From positions 1-38,441 of the IMG/VR virus record IMGVR_UViG_3300045988_109852: a stretch of 38,441 nt of DNA; one strand, 5' to 3'. The translations under genes were made by a program, and so were the position numbers. Source of the stretch: a virus. Shown here piece by piece: positions 2,824 to 38,441 of this stretch. The notes under the pieces are model-generated. The model ran no database searches and had not been told where the DNA came from. It saw only the letters and a list, made by a program, of their open reading frames with translations. The stretch's first letter is position 1. Each line of letters starts with the position of its first letter.

Positions 2824-4449
2824 TCACCACGCCTTTCTCGCTCTCTTCTGCCGCTTCATCTGCTCGATGAGCTTCTCCCGCGGCTTTTCCGGCTCCGTGA
2901 GCACCGTCATCCGCTGCTGATGCCGCACCGCGTAGGTGATCGCCGCGCCCATCACAAGGTCGTCGTGCTTCCCGGCGAGCGCCTCCGGCCGGTGGTCCTC
3001 GTTGTAGCAGAACGTCAGCATTTCTTCGAGCAGCTCCCGGTCGGTAAACCACTCCGGATGCGAGGAAAACACCTCCACCAGATTCGCAATGGCCCGCGGA
3101 CGGCTCTGCCGGTCGGTGCGAAAGCCGTAGCTCTTTTTCATCTGCCGGGTGTAGGTGTCCTCCCGCTCGCGGCTGTATTGATTCGGATACTCCGTCTCCT
3201 GCAGCTTCATCACCGGGTAGGTAGAGAAGTTCGTCTCGATGGCAACGAGCGCATCGTTGTAGAACCTCCCGAGTGCAAAGATCTGCCGGACGTATTCCGG
3301 CTCGCTGTATTTCTGCCGGAGCTTCGCCACGATCCTCCCGCTCACGTTGTCGATGACGATCGCCGTGAAGTAGTCCGAGCCCTCGCCCGCCGTGTCGCCG
3401 CCGAGCACATACGGAACGCCCTCCTCCGGCAGCTCGTAGAGCGTGATCGCGCCGGTCTCGCTCTCCGTCCACTCGCCGTCCGCAAACTCTCCGCGCCCGG
3501 CAGGGGATGGGAGCCGTTCCAGCCGGAGCACGATCTGCTCGTTGTCGAATACGCCCGTGCCGCTGTGGAGAAACGCCTCGCCGGGAGAGGCGGGATACTC
3601 CTGCCGGAACATGTCCAGGCTCCCGCCGCAGTTGTTCGCAATGCACCAGCGCCGCCATTGGAGCTGCTCTTCCGTCAGCTGATAGGCGGCCTTGAGATCC
3701 CGCTCCTCCGGCGTCCATTCCGTCCCCGGAACTACCGGCATCGAGTAGTCCGGGTTTTCAAACCACGCGAAGAACACCGGCTCAAAGTCGTTCTCCCCCG
3801 CAACGGCGGCGTCCCAGCGCTCCTTGAAGTCCTCAAAGCCGTTCGCCGTGCTCTCGATGACGACCATCGTGCCCGGCAGACTCGGCACGGCCTGTAAAAT
3901 GCCGGCAAGCGTGGAGGCTTTCCCGTCCGCGCCGTCCGGCCAGAAGGCGTACTCCGAAAGATGCACGCATTGCAGCGTGTCGCTTCGGCCGATGCCCCTG
4001 CCTCCCGCCGTCGCGCATCGGATCCGGGAGCGCAGTCCCGGCCTTGCCTCCCGCTCGCTGCGGAGCTTGGAGGGGTTCTCGAATACCAGCTCCTGCGCGT
4101 TCGAGGCGCGCAGCATCGGCTTCACCGGCGCGGGCAGCTCGTCGTAGAACAGCTTGCTCATCCGAAAAAGGTTCGCCGTCGCGTCCTCGCGGTGCGCAAC
4201 GATCAGCGCGTTTACGTTCTTTCGCGTCGCGCAGGCATGGAAGATGAGGCCCTCCGTCAGTGTGGAAAAGCCGAGCTGCCTGGCCTTGAGAATGATGAGC
4301 CGCACGGGCTTCCCCGCGTCCTGCTGCCGCTTCGCCACGGCGTAGAGCTTTCGCTGCGCGTCGTTCAGCCGGAACGGCACGACCGTCCCGCTCTTCGTCT
4401 TGATCTTGAGACAGCTCTCGATGTAGTCCATTGCTATGCACGGGTTCAT
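2824..4449 (-). CDS. terL: Terminase large subunit
   Basis: 541 aa. It has a Walker-A-like KARQLGFST motif and the nuclease-domain style typical of phage TerL. It overlaps terS by 4 nt. Confidence 0.9.
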   Translation of the reverse strand: MNPCIAMDYIESCLKIKTKSGTVVPFRLNDAQRKLYAVAKRQQDAGKPVRLIILKARQLGFSTLTEGLIFHACATRKNVNALIVAHREDATANLFRMSKLFYDELPAPVKPMLRASNAQELVFENPSKLRSEREARPGLRSRIRCATAGGRGIGRSDTLQCVHLSEYAFWPDGADGKASTLAGILQAVPSLPGTMVVIESTANGFEDFKERWDAAVAGENDFEPVFFAWFENPDYSMPVVPGTEWTPEERDLKAAYQLTEEQLQWRRWCIANNCGGSLDMFRQEYPASPGEAFLHSGTGVFDNEQIVLRLERLPSPAGRGEFADGEWTESETGAITLYELPEEGVPYVLGGDTAGEGSDYFTAIVIDNVSGRIVAKLRQKYSEPEYVRQIFALGRFYNDALVAIETNFSTYPVMKLQETEYPNQYSREREDTYTRQMKKSYGFRTDRQSRPRAIANLVEVFSSHPEWFTDRELLEEMLTFCYNEDHRPEALAGKHDDLVMGAAITYAVRHQQRMTVLTEPEKPREKLIEQMKRQKRARKAW

Positions 4450-4889
4450 AGCATCGAGCCCTCCTGCCTTGCGAGCCAGTCCTCAATGCTCTCGGCGGCG
4501 CTCTGCTCACCCTCGGCAAAGTTCATGTGCTCCGTCAGCTCATGCAGCGCCCGGATCGCGCTGTTGGCGTCGAGCAGCTTCTCGCCGCAGCGCTCGTCCT
4601 TGCGTGTCTCGGGGTTCCATCGGTAGGCAGGCACTTTCTCCATGCAGCTCTCCACGACCTCCACGAGCCGCCGCCCGATCCACTCCTTGGAGATCCCCAT
4701 CTCGTCAAAGAGCTTCTTTTCCAGCTTCCGCCGGTACTCGATCACTCCCTGCGTCTCCAACAGCTTCGACGCCCGCGAAGCGGCGCTCCTCGCGCTGTAC
4801 CCCGCGGCGATGGCGGCGTCCGTAGCGTCGCCGGAGCGCAGATACTCCTGCACGAACTTCTTCTGCCGCGGTGTGATATCTCTTGCCAT
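4446..4889 (-). CDS. terS: Terminase small subunit
   Basis: The N-terminus MARDITPRQKKFVQEYLRSGDATDAAIAAGYS is the classic Terminase_2 HTH. The gene lies directly upstream of terL. Confidence 0.85.
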   Translation of the reverse strand: MARDITPRQKKFVQEYLRSGDATDAAIAAGYSARSAASRASKLLETQGVIEYRRKLEKKLFDEMGISKEWIGRRLVEVVESCMEKVPAYRWNPETRKDERCGEKLLDANSAIRALHELTEHMNFAEGEQSAAESIEDWLARQEGSML

Positions 4890-4901
4890 GTCTCTCCCTC
4901 C

Positions 4902-5177
4902 TCACATCGGCCAGTACGCCGCGTAGAAATTCCGGCGCAGCTCGTATATCCGGCCCACCGGCACGCTCGTCTCGCGGCTCACCGTCTCCGGCGATTTGTT
5001 TTTCAAGAGAACGGCGATGAGGGCACGCCCCTCGGCCTGCCCCTTCGCTGTGCTCTCTATCGTTTTCCGGATCTCGTCCTGCGCCGGCGGCGGCAGATTC
5101 CGGTACGCCTCCAAGAAAGCATGTACGATCCGCTGCTGCCATACCGCCCCGCAGCCCTTCATCGGCCGGAATTTCAA
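4902..5177 (-). CDS. Putative late-gene transcriptional regulator (small HTH, sigma region-4/ArpU-RinA-like position)
   Basis: 91 aa with an HTH-like segment ETVSRETSVPVGRIYELRRNF. It sits immediately upstream of terS. Confidence 0.45.
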   Translation of the reverse strand: MKFRPMKGCGAVWQQRIVHAFLEAYRNLPPPAQDEIRKTIESTAKGQAEGRALIAVLLKNKSPETVSRETSVPVGRIYELRRNFYAAYWPM

Positions 5178-6046
5178 TTCTTCGCCTCCTTTTTAGCCTC
5201 CCTTGTGCAAAGGGAGGTGGCGGCATCGCCGCCTTCCTCCCCCTTGCCTCCCCTGACAGGGGAGGTGGCAGCCGGAGGCTGACGGAGGGGTTTTCCGCCG
5301 ACATTTGTTTTATCAGAACGCGCAGAGACGCGCGCGCCGTTGCCTTTTCTTTCCTTCTCCTTTCGGACGTAGCGGACGTAGGCGGAATAAAACCCGCTCT
5401 CCTCGTCCCGCGTCTCGGTCTGCTCTCGGATGGATGCGTCCTTCGGGAGCTTCATCCTGCTGTGCGCGTAAACCGGCACCGGCTCGGTGTATACCGGCTT
5501 TTCCAGCCCGCGGCTCGGATGGAATTTCTTTTTGCCTTCCTCGCCCTTGGCGTTGGAGATCATGTACCGGGCAACGCCGGTATAGTCCCCGCTCCCGTCC
5601 AGCCGGCGGTAGGTAACGCCCTGCTCCGGCCAAAGCGTGCATATGCTCTCATAGTCCATCGCCGGGAGGACGATGTGGAAATGCGGCCGAGCGTTCCCGA
5701 TCTCATTTTTCCGGCCATGCGAGTAGACGTACTTGAGATTCGCTCCTTGTTCCTTCCGATACAACGCGCGGAGCTTGCGCAAAAACCGGTCGAACACCGC
5801 TTGAGCGTCATCCCAGGATATTTCTCCCTCCCCGAAGGAGAGCGTGAGCCATACGTCGCCCGTGCCGAAATTGCAGTTGAGCGTGCGGGCAAGACTCTTC
5901 ACGGCGTTGATCTCGTTTCGCATGATCTTTCGGATGCTGGACTTCTTGGCTCTCGTTCCCCGCCGAACGCGCTGGCCGCCTCTCTTTGTCGGCATCCAGA
6001 CGCGGCGGATCTCCTCGGTCCTGCCGGAGATGATCTTGTATTCCAT
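5174..6046 (-). CDS. HUH rolling-circle replication initiator-like protein
   Basis: Three motifs occur in order: VWLTLSF (motif 1), RPHFHIVLP (HUH motif 2) and GVARYMISNAKG (catalytic Tyr motif 3). The preferred start is the ATG at 6046, with AAGGAG 11 nt upstream; the ORF track starts at a GTG at 6058. The last ~35 codons are translations of repeats B1 and A7. Confidence 0.7.
   Translation of the reverse strand: MEYKIISGRTEEIRRVWMPTKRGGQRVRRGTRAKKSSIRKIMRNEINAVKSLARTLNCNFGTGDVWLTLSFGEGEISWDDAQAVFDRFLRKLRALYRKEQGANLKYVYSHGRKNEIGNARPHFHIVLPAMDYESICTLWPEQGVTYRRLDGSGDYTGVARYMISNAKGEEGKKKFHPSRGLEKPVYTEPVPVYAHSRMKLPKDASIREQTETRDEESGFYSAYVRYVRKEKERKGNGARVSARSDKTNVGGKPLRQPPAATSPVRGGKGEEGGDAATSLCTREAKKEAKN
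5196..5233 (+). repeat. Structured repeat, family A variant (copy A7, lacks purine tail)
   Basis: GCCTCCCTTGTGCAAAGGGAGGTGGCGGCATCGCCGCC. Both stems carry compensatory changes relative to A1: CCTCCCTT/AAGGGAGG and GGCGGC/GCCGCC. Confidence 0.8.
5243..5292 (+). repeat. Structured repeat, family B (copy B1)
   Basis: CTTGCCTCCCCTGACAGGGGAGGTGGCAGCCGGAGGCTGACGGAGGGGTT. It lies inside the 3' end of the HUH gene. Confidence 0.85.
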
Positions 6047-6156
6047 GATGGCAAACACTCCTTTTTCCTCCCTGGTCGTAAAGTTATCCTTTTAACAAGT
6101 CCGTAAAAATTCGCGCACGCGCACGCGAATTATATAAAGTATCGCCGGTCTTTTCT

Positions 6157-6208
6157 CCTGCCTCCCTCCCCGAGGGGAGGTGTCAGCCAAAGGCTGACGG
6201 AGGGAGTC
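6157..6208 (+). repeat. Structured repeat, family B (copy B2)
   Basis: CCTGCCTCCCTCCCCGAGGGGAGGTGTCAGCCAAAGGCTGACGGAGGGAGTC, upstream of the HUH gene. It shares the extended flank TTTCCGCC..CATTT with B1. Confidence 0.85.
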
Positions 6209-6278
6209 TTTCCGCCCTCATTTCCGCCGCCGTGCTTAGGCAGCAGAAATCAAACCGGAAATTTCCTCGATTTTCCTC

Positions 6279-6307
6279 TTGCAAATGTCACGGTATCGTG
6301 ATATAAT
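6279..6307 (+). promoter_or_regulatory. Near-consensus sigma-70-type promoter for the DUF4160/DUF2442 cassette
   Basis: TTGCAA (6279-6284), a 17-nt spacer ending in TG-A, then TATAAT (6302-6307). The RBS AAAGGAGG is at 6321-6328. Confidence 0.7.
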
Positions 6308-6335
6308 ATAGTCAGAAACGAAAGGAGGCAATATC

Positions 6336-6590
6336 ATGCCGGTAATCGCCCGATTTTATGGGATCATCGTGAAGATGTATCTTCTCGGCGGGGAGCATAA
6401 TCCCCCGCACGTCCACGTTCTCTATGGGGAAAAGAACGGTGTCCTTGATCTCAATACGCTCACGTTCAAAGAATGCGACCTCCCCGCAAAGGCCCGCGCG
6501 CTCGTCCTCGAATGGGCTTCCGCGTACCAGCAGGAGCTTCTCACCATGTGGAAAACGCAGTCGTTCCGCGTGCTCCCGCCTCTGGAATGA
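6336..6590 (+). CDS. DUF4160 family protein
   Basis: MPVIARFYGIIVKMYLLGGEHNPPHVHVLYGE matches the DUF4160 signature (F.GI.I.MY....H.PPH.H). It follows a strong RBS and promoter. Confidence 0.75.
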   Translation: MPVIARFYGIIVKMYLLGGEHNPPHVHVLYGEKNGVLDLNTLTFKECDLPAKARALVLEWASAYQQELLTMWKTQSFRVLPPLE

Positions 6591-6621
6591 GGCCGGGAGC
6601 TTTCCGTAAAGGAGGTATCTC

Positions 6622-7056
6622 ATGTTTCACAAGCTCAAATCCGTCACGCCGCTTCCGGACTATACGCTCCTCGCCAATTTCTCGGACGGCTCCGTGAAAT
6701 CCTACGACTTCCGCCCGCTCCTCGACCGCATGGAGGTCTACGCCCCGCTGCGGGAGTCTCCCGCGTTCTGGGCGTCCGCCGCCGTCGATCCCGGCGGCTA
6801 CGGCGTTTCGTGGTCAGACGAGATCGACATCTCTGCCGAGGAGCTGTGGGAGCACGGCGTCGCCGCCGAAAGCCCGTTCTCCGGTCTTCTCTCGTTCGCC
6901 GACGCCACCGGCCTATGGGGTCTCAGCGAAAGCGCCCTGCGCAAAGCCGTGGAATACCGCAAGCTCACCGTCGGCGTCGATGTCCAGAAATTCGGCAAGC
7001 AATGGGTCGTCACCCGCTCCGCCATGGAACGCGAGTACGGCCGTCCCTCTCATTAA
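6622..7056 (+). CDS. DUF2442 domain protein with C-terminal HTH-like extension
   Basis: The N-terminus VTPLPDYTLLANFSDGSVKSYDFRPLL..GGYGVSWSDEIDISAEELW is DUF2442-like. The C-terminal segment GLWGLSESALRKAVEYRKL..WVVTRSAMEREYG resembles an excisionase/MerR-type HTH. Confidence 0.65.
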   Translation: MFHKLKSVTPLPDYTLLANFSDGSVKSYDFRPLLDRMEVYAPLRESPAFWASAAVDPGGYGVSWSDEIDISAEELWEHGVAAESPFSGLLSFADATGLWGLSESALRKAVEYRKLTVGVDVQKFGKQWVVTRSAMEREYGRPSH

Positions 7057-8607: not shown

Positions 8608-10230
8608 TTATTTATTGTTGGATTCTTCAAAATGGTGTTTTGTAACAGCGATTGGAAATTCTTCAATCTCCGAAGCCCATCTTGCGGTTCCCGCTCCGTG
8701 GATGCTTTCCCAGCAGAGTGGGAAGCCGCCGATCCCATCAAACAGGCTGCCGAGCGTCGCGCCATCCGGAAGATACGACGCCATTCTCCCGAACATCCAG
8801 CGCCAGAACGGGAGCGCGATGGAGTTGCCGAGCGCCTTGTACTTCGGCGCGTCCGCTTCCTTGTGTACGCGGCCTTTCTCGTCCGTCCAGTCGCCGATGC
8901 CGACCCATCCGTCCGGATACCCTTGAAGCCGTGTACATTCCAATGGGGTAAGCCGACGAACGACCATGCGCTCCATAACGTGCTGTTGTGTCCCGCCGCT
9001 CGCATGAGCTTTCAACGTGCCGAATTGGTCTATGTAAGCGTTTTTCTCGTCGTCGATGCTTATTACAAGATCCGTAGCGTCTTTGGAATCTCGCTGTTTG
9101 CAGGAAGAAACGATTTCCGACTCTTTATAGTCTCCAAACCCCTGCATCGAAAACGTACAGGGTACCTGGTTTCCGCCGGTCCCCATTCTCGCTTGCAATG
9201 ATGGGGACGACACATCTCTGCTCTCGCGTATCACGTCATTTGCGTGGCTCATGTCCAGGATGCACACACCGCCTTGATTTTTGCTTGGGTCTGGCGGAGA
9301 TGTATCAAGCGTTTTTGCTACGTCAACCGATCTGCACCCGCTGTTCGGGTTTTTACTTTTCATCGAATTTGACGCAAGGGAATCGAAACTAAAAGCCATG
9401 ACCGCCGGTCGGTCAATCGTATTGAGGGTGTAGCTTATATCCTCTTTCCATCCCTTGCCATTGCATCCGGCCGTATCGGCACGGTCTATTCCGTTGCCCT
9501 GTAAGCAGAAGATTTGAGCTCCAGAACAGTTTTCAGCACCTCCGGCAGTTTCTTCCCGCGCTGTTCCGCCCTCCGGAGGATCCCGGCGCACGCTTTCGGC
9601 GTCAGGTTGTACTTCGGGTCGGGACGCTCTTCCAGAATCTGCGATAACTTCGTGGGCACCGGGATCTTCGGCTCCTCCGAAACGTTCAAAGAGGATATCC
9701 CCTGCAGTGGATCCGTTAAAATCGACCACCATGCTGATACGCCGTCTGCGCTGGGGAACTCCCCAGTATTGTGCGTCGTGCGTTCTCCATGCGACACTCC
9801 ATCCGTCGCCGAGCATTCCTCCGGCTTTCGTCCACTTCTGCTTGTCCGGCAGTCGAGGAAGAGAAAACCCCGGTTCTGCGATGCGTACAGCTTCTTCCAG
9901 CACGGCTCCGAAATCTCCGAATCCGTCCTTGAAGTTGCTGCTGAATGCGCCTGGCACATTTTCCCAGACCATATACCGAGGTCGAACAAGCTCACCTGTC
10001 CGTCCAATGCTTCTGTCATGCTCTCTCATCTCCTTGACGATCCGTATCTGTTCCATGTACAAGCCGGAACGAGCACCGGCAAGTCCTGCACGTTTCCCTG
10101 CGATGCTCAAGTCCTGGCAAGGACTCCCGCCGGTGATGCACCAGACGGGCTCAACTTCTGCGCCATTGATCTTTGTGATGTCTCCTAAATGCTTCAAGGT
10201 CTTTTTCTCCGGCCTGCCATCTTCAGGCAT
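8608..10230 (-). CDS. DNA (cytosine-5) methyltransferase with circularly permuted motif order
   Basis: Motifs occur in this order: GDITKI (III), GGSPCQDLS (IV), WENVPGAF (VI), QYWGVPQRRRR (VIII), a variable region, RRLTPLECTRLQGYPDGW (IX), ALGNSIALP (X). Motifs LGSLFDGIGGF (I) and WASEIEEFP (II) follow only at the C-terminus. Confidence 0.85.
   Translation of the reverse strand: MPEDGRPEKKTLKHLGDITKINGAEVEPVWCITGGSPCQDLSIAGKRAGLAGARSGLYMEQIRIVKEMREHDRSIGRTGELVRPRYMVWENVPGAFSSNFKDGFGDFGAVLEEAVRIAEPGFSLPRLPDKQKWTKAGGMLGDGWSVAWRTHDAQYWGVPQRRRRISMVVDFNGSTAGDILFERFGGAEDPGAHEVIADSGRASRPEVQPDAESVRRDPPEGGTAREETAGGAENCSGAQIFCLQGNGIDRADTAGCNGKGWKEDISYTLNTIDRPAVMAFSFDSLASNSMKSKNPNSGCRSVDVAKTLDTSPPDPSKNQGGVCILDMSHANDVIRESRDVSSPSLQARMGTGGNQVPCTFSMQGFGDYKESEIVSSCKQRDSKDATDLVISIDDEKNAYIDQFGTLKAHASGGTQQHVMERMVVRRLTPLECTRLQGYPDGWVGIGDWTDEKGRVHKEADAPKYKALGNSIALPFWRWMFGRMASYLPDGATLGSLFDGIGGFPLCWESIHGAGTARWASEIEEFPIAVTKHHFEESNNK
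9486..10019 (-). CDS. Nested alternative-frame ORF inside the methyltransferase gene (candidate overlapping gene)
   Basis: 177 codons open, with AAGGAG 10 nt upstream of the ATG. Composition is protein-like, including the helical motif KLSQILEERPDPKYNLTPKACAGILRRAEQRGKKLPEVLKTVLE. Third-position G+C is much higher in this frame than in the MTase frame across 9522-9675. Confidence 0.35.
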   Translation of the reverse strand: MTEALDGQVSLFDLGIWSGKMCQAHSAATSRTDSEISEPCWKKLYASQNRGFLFLDCRTSRSGRKPEECSATDGVSHGERTTHNTGEFPSADGVSAWWSILTDPLQGISSLNVSEEPKIPVPTKLSQILEERPDPKYNLTPKACAGILRRAEQRGKKLPEVLKTVLELKSSAYRATE

Positions 10231-10271
10231 GGGCGGCCATCCCCATACGACGGGCCTTCCGCCCGTTTCGG

Positions 10272-10427
10272 CTAATCGATAATTTTTTCACTGTACAACC
10301 GGGCAATGTTCTCCCAGTCGTCGGCGTTCACATTGCCCTGATATCCAATCAGGAAGCACACAACATCCATCCTGTCCCAGCTGCGCTTTGTGCTCTCTAC
10401 ATACTTTGCGATCTCGTCGTAGCTCAT
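10272..10427 (-). CDS. Hypothetical small protein
   Basis: The internal Met of the 74-aa ORF gives a 51-aa product, MSYDEIAKYVESTKRSW... The RBS is weak. Confidence 0.35.
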   Translation of the reverse strand: MSYDEIAKYVESTKRSWDRMDVVCFLIGYQGNVNADDWENIARLYSEKIID

Positions 10428-12083: not shown

Positions 12084-12415
12084 TGAATTTCTCCTTTCTT
12101 TCTAAGGCTCCCGCCCACGCTCTTGCCTCCCCTAACAGGGGAGGTGTCAGCGCAGCTGACGGAGGGGTTCGGCTCCCTTGTGCAAAGGGAGCTGTCGGCG
12201 CAGCCGACTGAGGGATTGTCGTCCCCGCCGCAGCGCTCGTCCTTCCTGCACCACTCCGGCGTCCTCACGCTGTCCGGATGCGGATTCCCGTCCCGCACAA
12301 CGTGCAGCACCCGCCCGAACCTGTCGCCGTTCCCGGTGTACAGGCAGCGCACCGCCTGCTTCCCCTGCGGCCACTGGTCCAGCGCGATGTGCGGACATCC
12401 CCTGCACGTTTTCAT
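12080..12415 (-). CDS. Hypothetical Cys-rich protein whose 3' end reads through repeats A3 and B3
   Basis: The start at 12415 overlaps the upstream stop (ATGA). The body is MKTCRGCPHIALDQW... The last ~45 codons (DDNPSVGCADSSLCTREPNPSVSCADTSPVRGGKSVGG...) are repeat-derived. Confidence 0.5.
   Translation of the reverse strand: MKTCRGCPHIALDQWPQGKQAVRCLYTGNGDRFGRVLHVVRDGNPHPDSVRTPEWCRKDERCGGDDNPSVGCADSSLCTREPNPSVSCADTSPVRGGKSVGGSLRKKGEIQ
12122..12170 (+). repeat. Structured repeat, family B (copy B3)
   Basis: CTTGCCTCCCCTAACAGGGGAGGTGTCAGCGCAGCTGACGGAGGGGTTC. It directly abuts A3. Confidence 0.9.
12171..12220 (+). repeat. Structured repeat, family A (copy A3)
   Basis: Identical to A1 over 50 nt. 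Confidence 0.9.
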
Positions 12416-13322: not shown

Positions 13323-13375
13323 GGCTCCCTTGTGCAAAGGGAGCTGTCAGCCGTCAGGCTGACTGAGGGATTGTC
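13323..13375 (+). repeat. Structured repeat, family A (copy A4)
   Basis: Hairpin 2 is replaced by GTCAGCC-GTCA-GGCTGAC, a compensated change. It lies 7 nt from the stop of the 13383-13622 gene. Confidence 0.9.
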
Positions 13376-13382
13376 CTCTCCC

Positions 13383-13622
13383 CTATTTCGTCGCTTCCAA
13401 AATCCGCGCCGCCAGATCGTCCACGCGCCACTTCTTCTTTGTGCCGCGTTGGAAGCACGGCAGCCCGTCCAGAAACTCCGCGACGATCCTCCGGTTCTCA
13501 ATTCCGAGATACCGCCCGATCTGCGTCATGTCGGCGTATCGCGCGCCGCCCGTGCAGTGCTCCGTGAGATCTGCCTCGATCTTCCTCTGCTCCGCCGGAA
13601 CGGCCAGCCGTACTCTCGGCAT
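13383..13622 (-). CDS. Hypothetical DNA-binding-like protein
   Basis: 79-aa ORF. Its start is coupled to the upstream small gene (TAAATG). Confidence 0.5.
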   Translation of the reverse strand: MPRVRLAVPAEQRKIEADLTEHCTGGARYADMTQIGRYLGIENRRIVAEFLDGLPCFQRGTKKKWRVDDLAARILEATK

Positions 13623-21031: not shown

Positions 21032-21057
21032 GGCTCCCCTTTCGGGGAGCCTTTTTT
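21032..21057. terminator. Hairpin at the end of the giant gene
   Basis: GGCTCCCC-TTTC-GGGGAGCC with TTTTTT on the plus side. It overlaps the stop codon of the giant ORF. Confidence 0.45.
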
Positions 21058-24000
21058 ACTTCAAGCTCGGCAGCTTCCCGTACTTCAGGAAGTAATCGAT
21101 CGGGCTGCCCTCCTCGACGTACACCGTCCGGTTCCCTGCCTTGAGCGCCTTCCTCTTTGCCTGCGTCACGGCTTTCTGAATGTCCGTCCCGCTCGCCGTC
21201 TTCGTGAAGTCCGCGATCACGTTCCCGCTCACTTTCGGCGTTTTGGACGTTCCGCCCGCCTTCGCGGAGGATGCCGTGCCGGACCTCGGGATGATGATCT
21301 CCGGCGCTTTCGGCGTCGGGGCCTTGAGCGCCGTCCTCTTTCCTCTCCCGCGCCGGCCTCCGGAGCCGCCCGAACCTCCGTTCCACTTCTGATTCCTCGC
21401 GCTCTTCGCTGTGTACCCTGCGGCAACGTAAAGGGCGTCCTTCTGCTCCGGCGGAATGTCCAGGCTGTTGATGTACTCCACAACTTTTGCCTTCTTCGAT
21501 CCGGAAATGCTCTTGCCGTTCTCGTCCTTGTCGGCGTGCATCTCCTTTGTGGCAAAGTAGTAGTCGTAGTACGTCTCGTAGGAAACTCCCTTGGCGTACG
21601 CGGTGCGGGCCTTGTCGTAGACGTCCGCGTTGTAGGTGCGCAGTGCATACTCTGCGCCGAATACCTCGCGGTTTGCTTCGCGGTATACGATGGCGTCCAT
21701 GCGGCTCTCCGCCTGGTCCTCGGTGATGCCGTACAGCTCGGCGTACTCGGCGATGGCCGCGTCGTTGTCGGTCGAGAGCTCCGGGTGCGCCTTGAGATAG
21801 TCGTTCACCGCCTCACGGTACGGCTCGGCCTGCGCGAGGATCTCCTTCTGCCGCTCGATGAGCTGCGCCTTCAGCGCCCGGACGAGCCGGTTCTTCTCGC
21901 CATCCGAAAGGCTCTTGTCGTTCTGGATCGCGCGGATCTGCTGGTAGTAGTCGTTCACCTCGTCGCCGGCATGAGAAACGTATTTCCGCGTGATGCCAGC
22001 TCCGATGTCGCCGTCGTTCGCGTCGTACTTGAGATCGTCCAGAAGATCGTAGTACTCGCCCGTGGTCTTGTTGGTGCTCGTGGTGTCGATGGTGAACGCC
22101 GCCTGCGGCGCCGCGAGCAGCCAGTGGCTCGACTTCGTTGCCGGAGTAATCAGTGGGAGCAGAAGGTCTCCTATTACGCCGGTGTACTGGTCGAGAAGGT
22201 AGTTGACCTTTTTCGGCGACACCTTGAACAGCTTTCCGATAGCCTTGGAGAGCTCGTCCGTTTTCTCGTCGTACCGGTCCTCCGGTCGGTAGTTTTGCAG
22301 ACGGTCGCTCTCGATGTTCCCGCCGTACCATGTCGTGCCGGGGTTGTCCGGGTTCGTGAGCTTTGCCTGCGTCCACGCGGTAGCGATGTTCTGGTTGAAA
22401 ATGTCCGTGGGAGCAATGTTGCTCTTGATGACCTCGAACACGTCGGAGAACTTCACGTCCTCGCCCTTCTGTTTTTCCTGCGTGTACACAGCGGCAGTGC
22501 TCAGTACAGCGATAGCGCGCCCCTTTGGTATCTTGATCCAGTACCCGTTGCCGAACATTTTCCCGGCGTTGATAAGATAATAGTTTGCCTTCGTGCTGGC
22601 CGGAATATCGTCCCAGTCGTCATCATCGCCATGCATCAGGCCGTTTAGCAGCAGCGGCGGCAGATTGATGAGCGCCGCCTTTAGGATGAGAGACGCCGCG
22701 GCTTTCACGCTGCGGGTCTCCGTAGCGTTCCGGATGAACTTATCAAAGCCCTGTACGGACGGGTTGAGGAACGGCACGAGATACCGGTTGAGTGCCTTGG
22801 TGACGCTGCCGCCGCGGGCAAAGTTCGTCGTGATATCCGCCGCGCCGAGCATCGCCTCCATGAGGTCGCTCTGCGTGAATTTTCCGGTTTTCACTCCGTC
22901 CACCGTCTTGCTCCCGCCCTTGTTGGCAAGGATGGTCATAAACTCCGCAAGGCGGGGCGCCGCTTCGATGGCCTGTCCAAAGCTCTCATACCGTGCCGCA
23001 GCTTTGCCCAGCGCGTTCTTCGGCTCCTTCACCATGCCGGTCGTATAGTCCAGCATGGAGGCGTAGGAGCCGCCCAGCGCCTTGTACTGCTGCCAGATCT
23101 CGCCGTTTTTTCGGATTTGGTTCCATGCGCTCCAGTACATCTTTTCCCACGTCTTCCAGTCCGTGGAGTAGAACCCTGCGTCCTGCCAGTCTCGCACGCC
23201 GTTGCGAATCATGAAGAACGGATTGTACCCGGTGCATAGCGCCTTGAAGAGGTCGTTCAGCTTCTTCATAGCCTTTGCCGCGCCGTAGCTTGCGAACTTG
23301 TCCGGCTCAAAGGCTTTCATGGCCGCTGTCAGCCCCTCGTCCATCGTGATGTCGTAGGCCCTGCCGTTATCCTTCACCGAGAACACATTCTCGAATACCG
23401 GCTTGTAGTCCTCGTCGCTTTCAATGGCGGCCTCCGTCGGCGTGTACTCGCTCTCTGCAACGTTCCAGATGTACTTCTCCGCCGCTTTCGCGTTCCCGTC
23501 GTACTCGCGTACCAGCGCAAGGCCGAACTGGTTTAGGCCGGCGTTCCGCATCGTGGATACCGTCTTTCGGGAGAGCGCCGTGTGCAGCGGCAAGAGCACG
23601 CCGTCGCTGCCGACGGCCCGCCCGATGGCGTTCGATACGACGATGCCGCCGTTTCGCCGGGCGCTTCTGGCTCTCTTGCTGTTCGTACCCTCCTCGCGGA
23701 AGGTGGGGATGTAGTGCGGATACCGCTTTTTCAGCGCATTGGCAAACTCCGGCGTGATGAGTCCCGCCTCCACGCGGTAGCGGATGAGATCGTCCGAATA
23801 CTTATAGACCTCCTTCGCCCATTCCTTGAACTCCGGGTTCTTTGCCTCGAGAAGCTGCGCCGCCGTCTGGGAATCGTCCGCCGTCACGTCGTATCCGAAT
23901 ACCGGCTTCAAGCCCTGCTTTTCCACAATAGCCCGCTGCCGTTCCAGCTCCAGCGCGTAGGCCGCGCCCTCCGCTACGGACGTAAGGCTCGGCGCCTCGC

Positions 24001-27000
24001 CGTTGTGCGCCGCAAGATAGATCTCGTGCGCCGCCTGGCGCACGACCGGTGAATCGCTGTCGCTGTTTGCGATCCGGCGCAGCTCTTCATTCGACAGCTC
24101 CCGGAGCTCCGGGTATTTCTCCTTTACCCAGCGGAGATTTTCCTTGATCCGCTCCAGCTCGCCGCTGTTGTCGTACTTCATGCGGTCCACGTTGTGCATG
24201 TGCAGAAGATAGAGCTGAAAATCGCGGTACTTTGTCTCATTCTTCCGCATCGGGGCGAGGGTATCCGCAAGGCTCGCGCCGATCCTGTGGCCGTCGATGT
24301 CGGTACGCGCGCCGCCCTTGGCGATCCAGTTTCCCGCGCGCTGGGAGTAAGCCCCGGCATTGAAGTAGTACCCCTCAAGGCTCTTGCTTCCCGTAGCCTT
24401 GGCGATCCGGCGCACCGTGTCCCCGGCATTCACGAACATCCGCATAGCCCCGCTCGTGATTTTCTCAAAGTCCTCGCGGAAATTCCGCTCGGCCTTTATG
24501 ACCTCGGACGTGACCTTTTCCGTCGTGGCGGCGATCGTCGTCCCGGCAGCCGTGTTTTCCGTCTCCGCAGCCTCGCTGCTTTTCGGTGACGGCTCCGTGC
24601 TGTCAAGCTGTTCGGGATCTCCGAACAGCTCGGCGATCCGCGCGTCCTCGTCCGCGGTTTTCTCGGCCTCGAATTTCTTGGCGCGCTGGTAGTTCTCCTC
24701 CGAGAAATTCTTGTTGGCCATCGTGATAACTTCCTCTGCCGCATCTCTCGCCGCCGTCTCCTTCAGCGCCCGGACAAGTGTGTCTGCCTTGTGTCCGTCG
24801 TGGAAGATCGTCGCCTCGAAGTAGCCGCCGATCGGCGTCGGCTTCACCTCAATTTTGAATGTAGAATCCCTCGGCGTCCCCTTGAGGAAACCGGTCATCT
24901 GCACCTTCACCTCGGACTTGCCCTTGCCCATAAGCTCCCGGTAGACCTCGCCGGAGCTTTTGTTCGGCACGAATCGCTGTCCCGCTCCGAGATTTTCCCG
25001 CGCGCGGAGCCGTTCCGTCTCCCGCCGGTCGTTCTCCTGCGATTCTCTCATCTTATCTTTCCGTGCATTTCTGGCCGCAGCGCTTTCTTCCGCGTCATCC
25101 AGTGCTTCCGCGACGATCTCGTTGTTCCACGCCCGGCTCTCGTAGTCTCCCTCCACGGCATAAAGCGTTGTGTTGGCAGCGGTAACGACCGTTCCGGTTC
25201 CGTCGCCTCCAAACGGAAACCACGCGCGCACAGCTCCGTTTATGTCCTGCCCGACAACGAGCCCGTAATGTCCGGATTTGTCCTTCACCCATGTCCAGAA
25301 CGGCACGGTCTGCACCTCTGTCCCGCTCTCGGTTTTGAACACAGGATACTCCTTGTTTTCCGCTCTTTTCAGATCGCTTTGATAGTTGCCGCGGAGCTTC
25401 GTGTCCGGGTTGTAGAGGATGCGCGACGCGATCTCCGCCCGCATCCGGTCTCCCGCCCATCGGATCGCTTCCATTTTGGCCTTCGACTTATGCTTGGCGA
25501 CAACGTTTTTCCCGTCGCTGATATAGGCGTAGTACTCTCCGTTTTCCTCGCGGATGTTCACACGGTAGAAATTGCCTCCGCCCTCGTTCAGCGTCGCCTG
25601 GCCGCCGGTTTCCAGCCGTTTTTCCATGCCGGATATCTGCTTTTCATACTCTGCCACGTTCCGGACGGTGCGATTTTCCGCCATTTTGGGAGTCGTATTC
25701 TGGTACTTCTCGGCCTCGGAGAGCTTTTTTCTTCCCTGTTTTTTGTTGTCAGAATCCCGGTTTTCCACCTCCACACTCGCTTTGCCGGAAGAATTTTCTT
25801 GACTATTCCCCTCCGTCTGGCGTATAGTAACCGTAGAAGAAGACTTTCCCCTACGAGCGCCAGTTTCGTCAACGGAATTGGAAGAGCCATTAAAACTGGG
25901 AGGGCTTCTTCTTTCTATTTGTCCGACGTTGTACACAACTACCCCGTTTATGCCGTCGGGAGTTGAGATTGTCACCTGATAATACGTCCCATCGAAGTCA
26001 CAGAACCATGCGCGCCGGTAGTACCATCCATTTTTTGCGAAGTCACCGTGTATCGGCGTCCCCGTTCTTCCGATTTCGTCCGGTTTAGCCCTGTCGGATG
26101 TTTTTTCAGATATCTTCACCAGCTCGTCAATGTGTGCTTCCGCGTTCAGCTTGGTTTCATATTCGGCGTCTGTAAGCGGTCGAAGTCTCCCATTCGCGTC
26201 TCGCACATAGTTCCGGAAGCTCGCTTTCCCGGCGGTGTCCTCCGTGATCTTCAGCACGTCGCCGGAATCCGTCGTAAGGATCACGTCCTCGCCGTTGCGG
26301 ATCTTCCGGTTGATGTAGCCCTCGATCTGGTCGGCCCAGCTGTCCGGGTCATCCCCGAAGATCACCTGCCGGTCAGCCTGCACGTACTTTTTCCCGTCCG
26401 GAAGAACCACGATGCTCGCCCTTCCGGAAGATTTTTCTTGACTATCCCCGGTATCAGAGTGTACAATAGCATCAGACGAAGCCTTCGGCCCTCTGGTGAC
26501 CCCGTCTTGAACGGTAACCCCAGTTTTTGTGTTGCCGGGGGCTTCGTTCTTTATGTTTATGTAGTTTCCGTCCTGATCAACAACTTCGTCCAGATAGAAC
26601 TTGTTTGTTCCCTGATCTCGGTTTACTACAGCGGCTACATAAACGGTTGCGTCTCCCAATCCTACCGGAGCAGCAATCATGTAGCTGTCGTACCCTCGTC
26701 CTTTCCAATTCAGATTCGTCTTGATGATGTAGCCTTTTTCGATTACTTCCTTTATCGCTGCAACGCCCAGCACCTTTGACCGGTTCGGTTTGTGGTTTAT
26801 AATTCCGTCAACTCCGTAGCGGTTCAGCTCCACTTCGCCGAATCCTTCGCGGTGCGCGACGTTCCCCACAGACGCGAACAAATCAGAAATTTGTTGATCC
26901 AACGGTTTCGACGCATCATTCAATTCTTCCCCCGTAAGGTGCTTTACGACTTCCGAATTTTGCAGAAGCGGTATGCTGCTCGCCAGAACATAGGCGTTGC

Positions 27001-29650: not shown

Positions 29651-31002
29651 TTTTTCTTCCCTCCGGGCCAAGTCTTATACCCCGCGCTCGTCGGCGTTTT
29701 GTTATACGCTTTGGCGGTTGCCGCGTAGTCGGTGTAGTGGATCGCGTCCCGGAACTGTTCTTCGGTGATATCCCCGGCTTTGTACCGCGCCGCCAGATCG
29801 TTCCAGATCGCCACCCGGTCTTTCCCGTCGTTCAGATCTCCGAGGATCGCATCCTGCAATCCTTCCGTAGAAACCGTAACACTCCCGCCGCCACCGCTTC
29901 CGCTGTAGTATCCGGAATACGACGGCGTCTTGACATACCCCAGCGTCTTCGCAAGCTCCGGGTTCGCCGCGATCCACGCCTTCTGCATCTGGTCAATCTC
30001 GCTCTGCGTGTAGCCGAGTCCGAGATAGCCGGAGAAGTCGCCGTACTGCGCCATGTTCTGTGCCTTCGTCGCGGCGTCCTGCTGCTGCTGAAGAATGAGA
30101 TTCATCATGTTCGCGTAGAGATTCTGCTGCGCCTGCGCGTTCGCCTGATCCCGCGCGGCGTTCGCCTGATACTCTGCGTCCGCGCCCTGCTGCCGCAGCT
30201 GCATAATGGCAGCGATACGCGCGGCTTCGTTCTCGTTCAGCCGCTCGCCGTAGGCCGTATCCAGCCCCAGCCTGGCCGATTCGCTCATGCCGCCGCTGTA
30301 GCCTCTCGCTGCCATCTCCTGCGGCAGCACGCGCAGTGATTCCATGTAGTCGCGGTAGAGCTGTTTGTTGAGACTGCCGTACTGGTCTCCAAGCTCGCCT
30401 ACGCCCTTCTCCGCCTGCGCGAGAGCCCGCTCGGCGGCGGCCTTCGCCGCGTCGTTGTTGGCCTTCACCGCGTCGTCGTACATTTTCTGGTACTGGTCGC
30501 GCAGCTCGTCCAGATACGTCCGCTGCGGCTCGCCCGGCGTTTCCTCCGGCGTTCCTTCCGTCGTGCCCTTCTGCGCGTCGCCGTTGGGGTCGATGTACGT
30601 CACCTTGCCGCCGCCGGACGTACCCGGCTGCGTCGGCGTCGTGGTCGGCTGCCGCGCTCCGTTCCGGTTCGGCAGTACGCCCGCTCCGGCCATAGCGCCG
30701 GTTATCGCTCCGCTTGCCGCATTCGCCGCCGTCGCGTCCATGCCCGTCTGGTCATAGAGCCCTTTTCGCGGCGGCGCCGCCGCTCCCGTCCGGTCGGGAT
30801 CGATGGTCCCCTGCAGAGACGAGCTGTTCGCGCCGTTTTTGATCGCCTCCGCATACAGATTCCCGCTCTGGTTGTTATTCGACCGCGGGCTCGAATAATC
30901 CGTTTTGCTGATCCCTACGCCTTTTCCAGTAGCGGCATCGGTGAAGCGATTTTCATACCGGTTGTTGGCCTGCTTGTTCACCCAATCCCAAAACTTAGCC
31001 AT
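29647..31002 (-). CDS. Hypothetical virion-associated protein (Gln/Ala-rich coiled region)
   Basis: 451-aa ORF with strong RBS GGGAGGAAGGAAG. It lies between the portal and the giant gene. Confidence 0.6.
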   Translation of the reverse strand: MAKFWDWVNKQANNRYENRFTDAATGKGVGISKTDYSSPRSNNNQSGNLYAEAIKNGANSSSLQGTIDPDRTGAAAPPRKGLYDQTGMDATAANAASGAITGAMAGAGVLPNRNGARQPTTTPTQPGTSGGGKVTYIDPNGDAQKGTTEGTPEETPGEPQRTYLDELRDQYQKMYDDAVKANNDAAKAAAERALAQAEKGVGELGDQYGSLNKQLYRDYMESLRVLPQEMAARGYSGGMSESARLGLDTAYGERLNENEAARIAAIMQLRQQGADAEYQANAARDQANAQAQQNLYANMMNLILQQQQDAATKAQNMAQYGDFSGYLGLGYTQSEIDQMQKAWIAANPELAKTLGYVKTPSYSGYYSGSGGGGSVTVSTEGLQDAILGDLNDGKDRVAIWNDLAARYKAGDITEEQFRDAIHYTDYAATAKAYNKTPTSAGYKTWPGGKKK

Positions 31003-37445: not shown

Positions 37446-37469
37446 ATCGTTTCCTCCTTACCGCTCAAA

Positions 37470-37522
37470 GGCTCCCTTGTGCAAAGGGAGCTGTCAGCCG
37501 CAAGGCTGACTGAGGGATTGTC
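37470..37522 (+). repeat. Structured repeat, family A (copy A5)
   Basis: Hairpin 2 is GTCAGCC-GCAA-GGCTGAC. The rest is identical to A1. Confidence 0.9.
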
Positions 37523-37537
37523 GTCTTTTTTTACCGA

Positions 37538-37565
37538 AAACAGGGCGAGTCACCCCGCCCTGTTT
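37538..37565 (-). terminator. Hairpin after the holin gene
   Basis: AAACAGGGCG-8 nt-CGCCCTGTTT. The U tract lies partly within the stem. Confidence 0.4.
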
Positions 37566-37576
37566 CCCTCACATAA

Positions 37577-38351: not shown

Positions 38352-38402
38352 CTTGCCTCCCCTAACAGGGGAGGTGTCAGCCGGAGGCTGACGGAGGGGT
38401 TC
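38352..38402 (+). repeat. Structured repeat, family B (copy B4)
   Basis: Same as B3 except hairpin 2 is GTCAGCC-GGA-GGCTGAC. Confidence 0.9.
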
Positions 38403-38441
38403 GGCTCCCTTGTGCAAAGGGAGCTGTCGGCGCAGCCGACT
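38403..38441 (+). repeat. Structured repeat, family A (copy A6, truncated by the window end; equals A1 on circularisation)
   Basis: 39 nt identical to nt 1-39. Confidence 0.9.

Follow-up and report, generated by a model that had tools for sequence, protein, structure and literature searches.

The window analysed here is the whole of the IMG/VR virus record IMGVR_UViG_3300045988_109852, a stretch of 38,441 nucleotides with no close relative among the GenBank phages. Its minus strand carries an ORF at 60–1019, terL (stop codon at 2824–2826), a Rep gene (ORF 5174–6058; HUH motif HFHIV, phrog_3584) and an ORF at 13383–13622. The ORF at 60–1019, called the capsid gene in an earlier note on this DNA, had no family match in the present analysis. 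Next to these genes lie copies of a short repeat made of two hairpins and a purine-rich tail, of which the tandem pair at 12122–12220 is the focus here. A covariance model built from independent copies matches exactly 11 sites in the window (43–77 bits, E ≤ 7e-11), all of them on the plus strand as previously noted, and the runner-up within the 38 kb scores 15 bits. The model was trained on units with a 5-nt loop only, because MAFFT misaligned the 5' arm across mixed loop lengths. In shuffled sequence, either consensus gave 0 matches. The earlier note had counted eleven copies, and its coordinates and sequences hold; however, the contig is circular, with positions 38403–38441 identical to 1–39 and a single copy at this place in the relative L057, and therefore the distinct copies number 10. 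The two families A and B that it distinguished are both present, but they are merely two among at least 32 types of hairpin 1 and tail.

The first member of the focal pair, a B unit at 12122–12170 (+), matches the covariance model with 45.9 bits. Its hairpin 1 consists of a pyrimidine arm at 12126–12133 (CCTCCCCT), a loop at 12134–12136 and a purine arm at 12137–12144 (AGGGGAGG), followed by a T at 12145, a bridging hairpin at 12146–12160 (GTCAGC-GCA-GCTGAC) and a candidate third strand at 12161–12168 (GGAGGGGT). The A unit that adjoins it at 12171–12220 (+; 71.8 bits) is arranged in the same way, with a pyrimidine arm at 12172–12179 (GCTCCCTT), a loop at 12180–12184, a purine arm at 12185–12192 (AAGGGAGC), a T at 12193, a bridging hairpin at 12194–12208 (GTCGGC-GCA-GCCGAC) and a candidate third strand at 12209–12216 (TGAGGGAT). 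Folding of the B unit as DNA yields both hairpins with the tail unpaired (z = -3.8), and the corresponding value for the A unit is z = -4.1; folding with ViennaRNA covers secondary structure only, and the tail comes out unpaired.

The other copies also lie on the plus strand. An A unit at 1–50, the same physical copy as 38403–38441, is 9 nt from the stop codon of ORF 60–1019; a second, at 2773–2822, is 1 nt from the terL stop codon, with a canonical terminator lying separately and farther downstream at 2702–2677 (minus strand); and a third, at 13323–13375, is 7 nt from the stop codon of ORF 13383–13622. A further A unit is found at 37470–37522. The B unit at 38352–38402 belongs to a tandem pair across the contig junction, the sequence at 38403–38441 being the assembly overlap that repeats the first 39 nt of unit 1–50. 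The Rep gene has units on either side, at 5196–5292 and 6157–6208. Within the 3' end of its ORF, a tail-less variant at 5196–5233, which keeps both hairpins and has lost the third strand, stands in tandem with a B unit at 5243–5292; the counterpart of the variant in relatives keeps an intact tail, GGAGGGAT. Upstream of the Rep gene is a B variant (6157–6208) with an arm of the CCTCCCTC type, the tail GGAGGGAG and one additional G in the purine arm compared with the version of the relative L021, which is a perfect 8/8 mirror. The distances of 9, 1 and 7 nt to minus-strand stop codons given in the earlier note are correct, and at these sites the placement that it described applies; at 5196–5292, in contrast, the minus-strand Rep ORF runs through the copies. 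Units of this kind lengthen ORFs, as in this read-through, and may mislead naive gene callers on strand.

Several known signals can be set aside. At the gathering threshold, the sole Rfam match of the window is Hammerhead_II, outside the units, and under permissive settings the best scores at the focal pair are 13–19 bits against thresholds of 37–99. No promoter-like site, terminator-like site (on either strand) or U tract overlaps any copy; the units are thus not simple terminators, as already proposed, and a terminator/promoter cassette was rejected on the same ground. Spacings of 0 to 24 kb, two unit types and the absence of a regular repeat-spacer array likewise do not fit CRISPR. The unit sequence strings gave chance matches only when sought in papers, and no earlier description of the present family was found in the literature on triplexes, covariation and phages.

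Both hairpins covary. Among 139 distinct bacterial-genome copies, 97.7% of cells pair in hairpins 1 and 2 versus 85.8% after shuffling, 9 of the 14 pairs are altered on both sides, and none of 500 shuffles matches the observed values, which confirms that the differences between copies are compensatory and supports the proposed selection on structure. Loop 1 is 3–5 nt long, and loop 2 clusters at 14–24 nt, a length that fits one T plus hairpin 2. The base of hairpin 2 is conserved in sequence across phyla (TG[T/G]C...GAC). A G.A mismatch recurs at its second pair (46/199 copies), and G.T mismatches exceed A.C mismatches by 8 to 2.

The purine tail is more than a passive purine stretch, a point that the earlier note had missed: the 8 nt that follow the second hairpin are a position-wise mirror of the purine arm in the first, as the third strand of a triple helix would be, with arm G facing tail G, arm A facing tail A or T, and arm C facing tail T. 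In a set of 345 unique double hairpins collected without any constraint on the tail, the fit in register is 7.34/8 versus 2.7–3.9 at slides of -3 to +4; the tail is perfect (8/8) in 213 units and fits at 7/8 or better in 311. The mean fit over 32 distinct arm types is 7.22, compared with 4.58 ± 0.23 for permuted tails, and 0 of 10,000 permutations reach 7.22. Examples of an arm and its tail are GGGAGAGG with GGAGAGGG, GAGGGAGG with GGAGGGAG, AAGGGGGC with TGGGGGAT and GGAGAAGG with GGATGTGG. At the closing pair, C is matched by T in 167 of 177 cases, and at the loop end A is matched by T in 253 cases. In the focal pair, the tail of the B unit agrees with the reversed purine arm at 8/8 triad-code positions, and that of the A unit is triad-compatible at 8/8, with C to T at the closing pair and A to T at the loop end. 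Since the arm-tail code is the antiparallel purine-motif triad code, each unit reads as a class II intrastrand DNA triplex bridged by hairpin 2.

All units show the PIT/ITxF order of domains, namely pyrimidine-rich, purine-rich and reverse-Hoogsteen, 5' to 3' on one strand. They also agree with its triad definition (PMC4666352), which asks for an antiparallel third domain with G.G-C plus A.A-T or T.A-T, a stem of at least 6–8 and at most one mismatch: 311 of the 345 double hairpins reach 7/8 or better. They depart from its short loops, loop 2 being 14–24 nt long and itself a covarying hairpin. Some observations run contrary to a triplex: in sizeable subfamilies an A faces a G-C pair in the middle of the triplex, as when the tail GAGAGG meets the arm GGGGAG (43 cases at position 5 and 20 each at positions 4 and 6), which would weaken it, and in composites of inverted pairs Watson-Crick pairing between the two complementary tails would be a competitor of the triplex. 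Two other structures were considered for the tail. Because the arms are nearly mirror-symmetric, a 5-bp helix between the tail and the 5' arm is possible, but Watson-Crick pairing of this kind fails to explain the covariation at the closing pair or the T opposite arm A. A G-quadruplex was rejected because G runs are too scarce in A-type units and the closing-pair rule would be left unexplained.

The repeat is widespread: 119 or more viral stretches and 120 or more genome stretches carry it, with 261 covariance-model matches in the viral and 206 in the genome loci among those listed. Gut viral contigs and the genomes of Oscillospiraceae and other Clostridia have it in abundance, it is also present in Sphingomonas and Bifidobacterium, and the same architecture recurs with other arm sequences in unrelated phyla. 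Among cultured phage records, only eight unannotated faecal contigs match, and plasmids gave no match. Phage units are mostly solo or in tandem and about 83–100% antisense to genes, according to gene calls from a codon model that was started from validated genes of the window. In some loci of high GC content (L059, L103), PHROG matches showed that a self-trained gene caller had settled on shadow ORFs of the antisense strand. Bacterial copies have no orientation preference relative to genes, and 98 of 221 genome-locus copies lie no more than 150 nt from an inverted partner, tail to tail for the most part, in a REPIN-like manner; arrays of units occur in L225. The window copies are all direct. 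The single orientation emphasized earlier is hence a property of this phage lineage and of most phages, but not of the family overall.

Which strand carries the signal bears on the role in mRNA processing or stabilisation that the earlier note had put forward and for which no direct support emerged. As DNA, the plus strand, antisense to genes, matches the triad code, and the transcript strand is matched less well: the purine-motif fit of 7.34/8 compares with 6.00/8 for a pyrimidine-motif code on the complementary strand. The recurrence of G.A and the excess of G.T over A.C in hairpin 2 also favour the plus strand. An alternative that we regard as unlikely is that the unit acts in mRNA, where its complementary form (pyrimidine leader, hairpin 2', hairpin 1') would act between cistrons to process or stabilise transcripts, perhaps by protecting a 3' end as an RNA triplex of the pyrimidine motif (class IV). 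Copies are antisense to genes in 10/10 cases here, 62/62 in relatives and 103/124 in unrelated viral loci, so that the transcript would always bear the same form of the unit; inverted pairs in bacteria would give this form to transcripts of both directions, and the phage bias of 83–100% is equally expected from a transcript-level function of the complementary strand. The units also stand between cistrons, 1–9 nt past stop codons, and the central six positions of the complementary strand satisfy U.A-U and C+.G-C triads as well. RNA can adopt intrastrand triplexes of the pyrimidine motif but none of the purine motif (PMC4666352). However, the C-to-T change at the closing pair and the A-to-T changes at the loop end and internally are canonical for the purine-motif strand only, the transcript having A.C-G and A.A-U instead, and the G.A mismatch of hairpin 2 turns into C.T. 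A run of 5 or 6 consecutive C+ triads is unfavourable at neutral pH, which also counts against an RNA triplex. Finally, the units lack a U tract, a terminator-like site and an Rfam match, and the element at 2773–2822 is followed by a separate canonical terminator. We take a selfish or structural DNA element to be the most probable identity of the repeat, ahead of an RNA signal.

A single-stranded DNA structure is favoured, in agreement with one half of the further suggestion that the hairpins are ssDNA substrates of the HUH protein encoded among them; a link to that protein found no support. Within the flanks covered, Rep homologues accompany 15 of the 119 viral loci listed and 1 of the 120 genome loci listed, and the 15 comprise 8 close relatives (71–97% Rep identity) and 7 distant ones (26–40%). 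That the units serve an HUH enzyme, either the phage rolling-circle Rep or a host RAYT/IS200-like transposase, as origins or mobilisable REP-like elements, appears rather improbable. It would suit the strand-specific structure with its best fit to ssDNA, the units bracketing the Rep gene of the window, the REPIN-like inverted pairs in bacteria and the hairpin-2 base, whose sequence conservation across phyla is expected for a protein site. Apart from the scarcity of Rep homologues, it has against it that no transposase-like family recurs beside the units in the flanks covered, the neighbours being ABC transporters and HTH proteins, that neither a conserved GTAG-type flank nor a uniform target site is present, and that the relative L043 retains Rep yet has no units at its 3' end. 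We consider it very improbable that the units are duplex-DNA sites for a phage or host regulator, stoperator-like, with incidental hairpins and mirror symmetry: they are intergenic, share one orientation within the phage and contain conserved sequence blocks, but compensatory changes preserve pairing and not sequence, a duplex-binding protein cannot read mirror symmetry as a repeat, and unrelated phyla share the architecture with different arm sequences.

Phages that share identical capsid proteins differ, through gain and loss, in the copies that they carry. The block 12102–12239, with the entire focal pair, is missing from L043, in which an unrelated 30-nt hairpin also takes the place of block 5178–5294. 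The presence of a 68-nt block at 37460–37527 varies among close relatives, being missing in L057, L098, L109, L240 and L243, and relatives have an additional B unit inserted immediately 5' of unit 13323–13375, in a case of tandem growth. Homology with L088 breaks at 2728/2840, around unit 2773–2822. Overall, 36% of internal homology breakpoints with relatives fall at most 60 nt from a copy, versus 5.8% expected over all covered positions rather than intergenic ones alone, an enrichment of about 6-fold that substantiates the reported location at module boundaries. When relatives were compared, no uniform target duplication was seen at insertion sites, the junctions showing one 7-nt GGCTCCC repeat and one TTACCG microhomology; clean transposition with target duplication was rejected on this basis. 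The 'empty' sites could reflect deletions.

With moderate confidence and judging from covariation, we propose that each copy is a unit of a dispersed REP-like DNA repeat defined by an intrastrand purine-motif (class II) triplex, and we infer that it functions as a structure-forming, recombinogenic or selfish DNA repeat. The plus strand would fold when single-stranded or extruded, its pyrimidine and purine arms pairing into hairpin 1. One T and the short, sequence-conserved hairpin 2 would then turn the strand as a bridging loop, and the next 8 nt would follow the major groove in antiparallel orientation to the purine arm, forming G.G-C, A.A-T or T.A-T triads plus a T over the C-G inversion of the closing pair. 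If this folded knot forms in vivo, it may, by analogy with BoxC and PIT, impede polymerases and provoke template switching or illegitimate recombination, which would copy units to new intergenic sites, often beside an existing unit, and shuffle phage modules. The orientation bias in phages would reflect either an insertion route specific to one strand or the purging of whichever orientation is harmful relative to transcription or replication. A more far-reaching reading, which we hold to be doubtful, is that selection maintains the DNA triplex as a tertiary-structure signal in phage ssDNA, with hairpin 2 as a protein or turn module. The signal would then serve an event confined to one strand, for example a polar barrier to the fork or the priming of the complementary strand following rolling-circle replication.

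The closest known elements are the BoxC/PIT/TMECO triplex repeats of E. coli and other bacteria (Holder 2015, PMC4666352). For these class II intrastrand triplex repeats, in vitro work has shown folding, by CD and NMR, and a block to DNA polymerase, and they mark loci that have been rearranged; in vivo effects of PIT elements were weak or absent, and TMECO was reported to be unassociated with phages, plasmids and transposons and to have no strand bias (PMC4666352). The present repeat shares their strand order of pyrimidine arm, loop, purine arm, loop and reverse-Hoogsteen strand, their triads of G.G-C and of A or T over A-T, and their G/C-rich, intergenic, multi-copy nature, with occasional inverted pairs and a link to rearranged loci. 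It differs in its sequence, in a stem of 8 rather than 9 triads, in a second loop consisting of a conserved 15–23-nt hairpin plus one T in place of 3 nt, and in the T that matches the C-G inversion at the closing pair. Its hosts are mainly gut Clostridia and their phages, and in phages it is abundant and strongly oriented, unlike TMECO. The TMECO/BoxC consensus CCCTCNCCC-N3-6-GGGNGAGGG-N3-GGGNGAGGG does not describe the units of the window, which have other arms and a hairpin in loop 2, and simple TMECO-like motifs were found in Sphingomonas loci only.

Other systems resemble the repeat in part. REP/BIME/REPIN elements and their RAYT enzymes (PMC3116915, PMC8266576) offer short, structured, intergenic, multi-copy repeats that are present or absent between strains and that, in bacterial chromosomes, likewise form clustered arrays and inverted doublets; the present flanks, in contrast, are A/T-GG and lack GTAG, no RAYT was found in them, and the third-strand module, the cross-phylum architecture and the solo, co-oriented units in phage genomes are distinct. 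PeSL cassettes of T4-type phages (PMC2839356, PMC4122927) are also repeated stem-loops at module borders and at junctions of insertion, deletion or replacement, but they form a transcription unit of an early promoter and a terminator-like stem-loop, whereas the present units have neither and carry the triplex code. H-DNA shares the mirror symmetry of a purine tract and the purine-motif triads. Here, however, the acceptor duplex is a hairpin from a same-strand inverted repeat, and therefore one strand suffices for the fold, with no half of the complementary strand left unpaired. T7 RNase III sites and intrinsic terminators are likewise hairpins between cistrons of a polycistronic phage transcript; the units differ in having no U tract and a covarying tail, and the strand evidence favours DNA antisense to the transcript.

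It has long been asked whether intramolecular DNA triplexes arise in living cells and are of consequence there. The bacterial triplex repeats known so far (BoxC/TMECO) hardly vary and therefore offer no evolutionary test, whereas the present family does vary, its third strand tracking the duplex over dozens of sequence types. Covariation, the type of evidence that established RNA structures, is thereby extended to a three-stranded DNA fold. If selection does maintain the structure, this would be the first natural DNA triplex backed by base-triple covariation, with a function that could be probed directly in gut phages. The proposed hairpin-bridged form is new among the little-studied bacterial triplex repeats and common in gut phages; triplex repeats now reach gut Clostridia and, against the earlier TMECO report, phages. 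Since the phage units are strongly oriented and located at mosaic junctions, they may contribute to module shuffling. Searches for such motifs have limited the second loop to 1–6 nt (ITxF) or 0–10 nt (Hoyne et al. 2000, as cited in PMC4666352), and tools restricted to short loops miss triplex motifs with a hairpin in the second loop. The units also break assemblies, and the present contig is cut inside one.

The focal stretch (12122-12220, +) consists of two adjoining units of ~50 nt, a type B copy (12122-12170) and a type A copy (12171-12220). Each unit contains a hairpin with a pyrimidine and a purine arm (hairpin 1), one T, a second hairpin (hairpin 2) and an 8-nt tail. These repeats belong to the class II intrastrand DNA triplex repeats, of which they form a new variant bridged by a hairpin, with the tail as the proposed third strand, antiparallel on the purine arm of hairpin 1. 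Searching for exact and near-exact matches, running a repeat finder and scanning without bias for neighbouring perfect hairpins recovered all copies given in the earlier note, on the + strand only. A covariance model trained on 28 copies from contigs other than the window, run unfiltered, gives 11 matches in the window, all on the + strand (43-77 bits; next best 15 bits). All eleven proposed sites are therefore real, but only 10 copies are distinct: the last 39 nt of the contig (38403-38441) equal the first 39 nt (1-39), with the overlap inside a repeat unit, and a relative of the window phage, L057, is continuous across the junction with a single copy there. Hence, the window covers a full circular genome, opened by the assembly inside a repeat unit. 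The tail is missing from the copy at 5196-5233, and the purine arm of the copy at 6157-6208 carries one extra G.

Selection on structure, as proposed earlier, is supported by the covariation of both helices in 139 distinct genome copies, where paired cells amount to 97.7% versus 85.8% after shuffling, with both partners changing in 9 of the 14 pairs and slid controls collapsing. In predicted DNA folds, both hairpins form (z = -3.8 to -5.7) and the tail stays unpaired. The first tail base tracks the hairpin-1 closing pair (G-C with T in 134 copies, C-G with G in 54, ~10 exceptions) and the seventh tracks pair 7 (C-G with G in 130, T-A with A in 61, ~8 exceptions). The code was tested on all 1.9 Mb of fetched DNA using a pyrimidine-armed 8-bp hairpin plus a second hairpin with the tail unconstrained, which yielded 345 unique double hairpins with a 1-nt spacer and 32 hairpin-1 arm types. 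In nearly all 345, the next 8 nt are the reversed purine arm, where G in the arm corresponds to G in the tail, A to A or T, and the closing-pair C to T; T over a C-G inversion agrees with purine-motif studies. The in-register fit is 7.34 of 8 positions, with 213 of the 345 units perfect, and slides of -3 to +4 give mean fits of 2.7-3.9 and zero perfect units. The arm-type mean fit is 7.22 versus 4.58 +/- 0.23 with tails permuted, a value reached in 0 of 10,000 permutations. The purine tail described earlier is thus present, but it is not merely a purine tail, since it mirrors the purine arm position by position. Watson-Crick pairing and copying were rejected as sources of the pattern, as neither yields a mirror relation. 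The base rules of the tail are those of the antiparallel purine-motif triad code (G.G-C with A.A-T/T.A-T) as defined in PMC4666352. The distance from purine arm to third strand clusters at 14-24 nt, which corresponds to one T plus hairpin 2.

Intrastrand triplex repeats occur in bacteria as BoxC/PIT/TMECO, CCCTCNCCC-N3-6-GGGNGAGGG-N3-GGGNGAGGG (Holder et al. 2015, PMC4666352, where Hoyne et al. 2000 is cited). These fold and block DNA polymerase in vitro, have neither promoter nor terminator activity, are intergenic without strand bias, at times form inverted pairs and mark rearranged loci (PMC4666352). The second loop of BoxC/TMECO is N3, whereas that of the window family is T plus hairpin 2 (14-24 nt). 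Also, BoxC/PIT/TMECO were reported without association to phages, plasmids or transposons (PMC4666352), in contrast to the window family, which is frequent in gut phages. Published triplex search tools, as far as these are described in PMC4666352 and by Hoyne et al. as cited there, allow a second loop of at most 6 or at most 10 nt and would therefore miss the hairpin-bridged family. The literature searched, coverage of which is incomplete, yielded reports neither of a triplex repeat bridged by a hairpin nor of a triplex repeat in phages. Short-loop class II motifs resembling BoxC/TMECO, for instance CCTCTCCCTTCAGGGGAGAGGGCAGGGTGAGGG, are present in two Sphingomonas loci (L130 694-726 and L209 5814-5846) and share Sphingomonas genomes with the hairpin-bridged form.

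The purine-motif code fits the + strand at 7.34/8. For the complementary strand, a pyrimidine-motif code reaches 6.00/8 and fails at the closing pair, the loop end and internal A->T positions. The second pair of hairpin 2 is recurrently G.A (46 of 199 copies), or C.T if read on the other strand, and G.T versus A.C mismatches in hairpin 2 number 8 versus 2. As RNA does not form purine-motif triplexes (PMC4666352), these patterns are best read as a probable fold of the + DNA strand, the template strand for nearly all genes of the window phage. The main rival is that the complementary strand acts at the transcript level, which is kept alive by, and may account for, the orientation bias in phages. 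With the gene caller corrected for shadow ORFs, antisense to sense counts relative to genes are 62:0 in relatives of the window phage, 103:21 in unrelated viral loci, and close to even (about 1:1) in genome loci. The single orientation noted earlier thus extends from the window to its relatives and most other viral loci, but not to bacterial genomes. In two high-GC viral contigs (L059 and L103), antisense shadow ORFs of 800-1500 codons, each across several real genes, led a self-trained caller astray, and PHROG matches (terminase, portal and major-head) showed which strand is coding.

The units had also been suggested as substrates of the rolling-circle HUH protein, Rep (5174-6058, -; HUH motif HFHIV), which they flank on both sides in the window. 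Among the matches listed, a Rep homologue accompanies units in 15 of 119 viral loci, 8 of them close relatives of the window phage (71-97% Rep identity), and in 1 of 120 genome loci; the link is not supported, though an enzyme acting in trans might still be involved. No recurrent transposase-like neighbour was found among the neighbouring genes in the fetched loci. The last ~45 codons of Rep run through two units, the Rep family profile stops at residue 243, before this unit-coded extension, and Rep is called at 275-290 aa in relatives. The minus strand of the units has no stop codon in any frame, so that upstream ORFs are extended.

The family is dispersed like REP elements. A single degenerate pattern for hairpin 1 and the first part of hairpin 2, with the tail left out, matches at least 119 IMG/VR stretches and at least 120 GTDB genome stretches. 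The GTDB matches listed are mostly Oscillospiraceae/Clostridia MAGs, the others being Sphingomonas/Sphingobium, Bifidobacterium, Bacteroidales, Megasphaera and one Deinococcus MAG, and the tail, though outside the pattern, is present in 97 of the 126 genome matches listed. By the covariance model, the fetched viral loci (0.86 Mb) contain 261 copies and the fetched genome loci (0.68 Mb) 206; the family was not found in the cultured phages and plasmids searched. Of the copies in bacterial loci, 44% lie within 150 nt of an inverted partner, usually tail to tail. Composites made of a forward unit, a spacer and a reverse unit (~135-165 nt) are single in Sphingomonas and, in a MAG, are arrayed in tandem between genes for ABC transporters. 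Viral copies are solo (60%) or have a direct (27%) or inverted (13%) partner. At 3900-6950 of the bacterial MAG locus L225, gaps between genes are filled by tandem ~150-165-nt composites, ordered as forward unit, ~45-nt spacer, reverse unit and T run, and the two tails within one composite are mutually complementary. Genes for ABC transporters are also recurrent neighbours of units elsewhere among the genome loci.

Unit number varies among phages with identical capsid protein. A 68-nt block (37460-37527) is missing from five relatives and block 12102-12239 from the relative L043, in which another hairpin also replaces the unit pair at the Rep 3' end. B units are seemingly inserted beside or within A units, in one case with a 7-nt GGCTCCC repeat. 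The junctions are not uniform, which precise transposition explains less well than illegitimate recombination or template switching, and gain and loss look alike. Of 151 internal homology breakpoints with relatives, 36% are found no more than 60 nt from a unit versus 5.8 +/- 1.9% expected, the null being all covered positions, intergenic and genic. Triplexes may form in vivo and could affect polymerases and recombination.

The window is the complete 38.4-kb genome of a temperate phage, with a G+C content of 60%. Nearly all genes are encoded on the minus strand, and those identified include terL, terS, Rep, a DNA methyltransferase, portal, integrase and a large polyvalent protein. Units are confined to short intergenic gaps in the arc 37470 -> 38441/1 -> 13375. 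Minus-strand stop codons precede three units by 1-9 nt, in agreement with the earlier note, as is its view that these are not simple terminators: no terminator-like or promoter-like site overlaps any unit in the window. A canonical terminator (2702-2677, -) is separate from, and downstream of, the unit at 2773-2822, and no Rfam family matches the units. A terminator-like hairpin, AAACAGGGCG...CGCCCTGTTTTC (37530-37570, -), lies between the holin-side gene and the unit at 37470-37522; in relatives without this unit, the next ribosome-binding site follows the hairpin immediately. A DUF4160 / DUF2442-HTH gene pair (6336-7056, +), encoded on the opposite strand and placed between Rep and the module that follows, is replaced by an HTH_3 pair in some relatives with identical capsid protein and is thus a swapped cassette; it adjoins the unit at 6157-6208. 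The large polyvalent protein, a 2871-aa ORF (21056-29671, -), contains an LPD38 domain; relatives' versions reach 3257 aa, and the domains in these versions include LPD23, LPD3 and MuF_C. A type II hammerhead ribozyme (10208-10273, -; 45.9 bits, gathering score 37) has the same orientation as the genes and either lies immediately upstream of the DNA methyltransferase ORF or overlaps its start. The surrounding 78 nt (10204-10281) retain 94-96% identity in relatives with differing flanks and thus behave like a conserved cassette.
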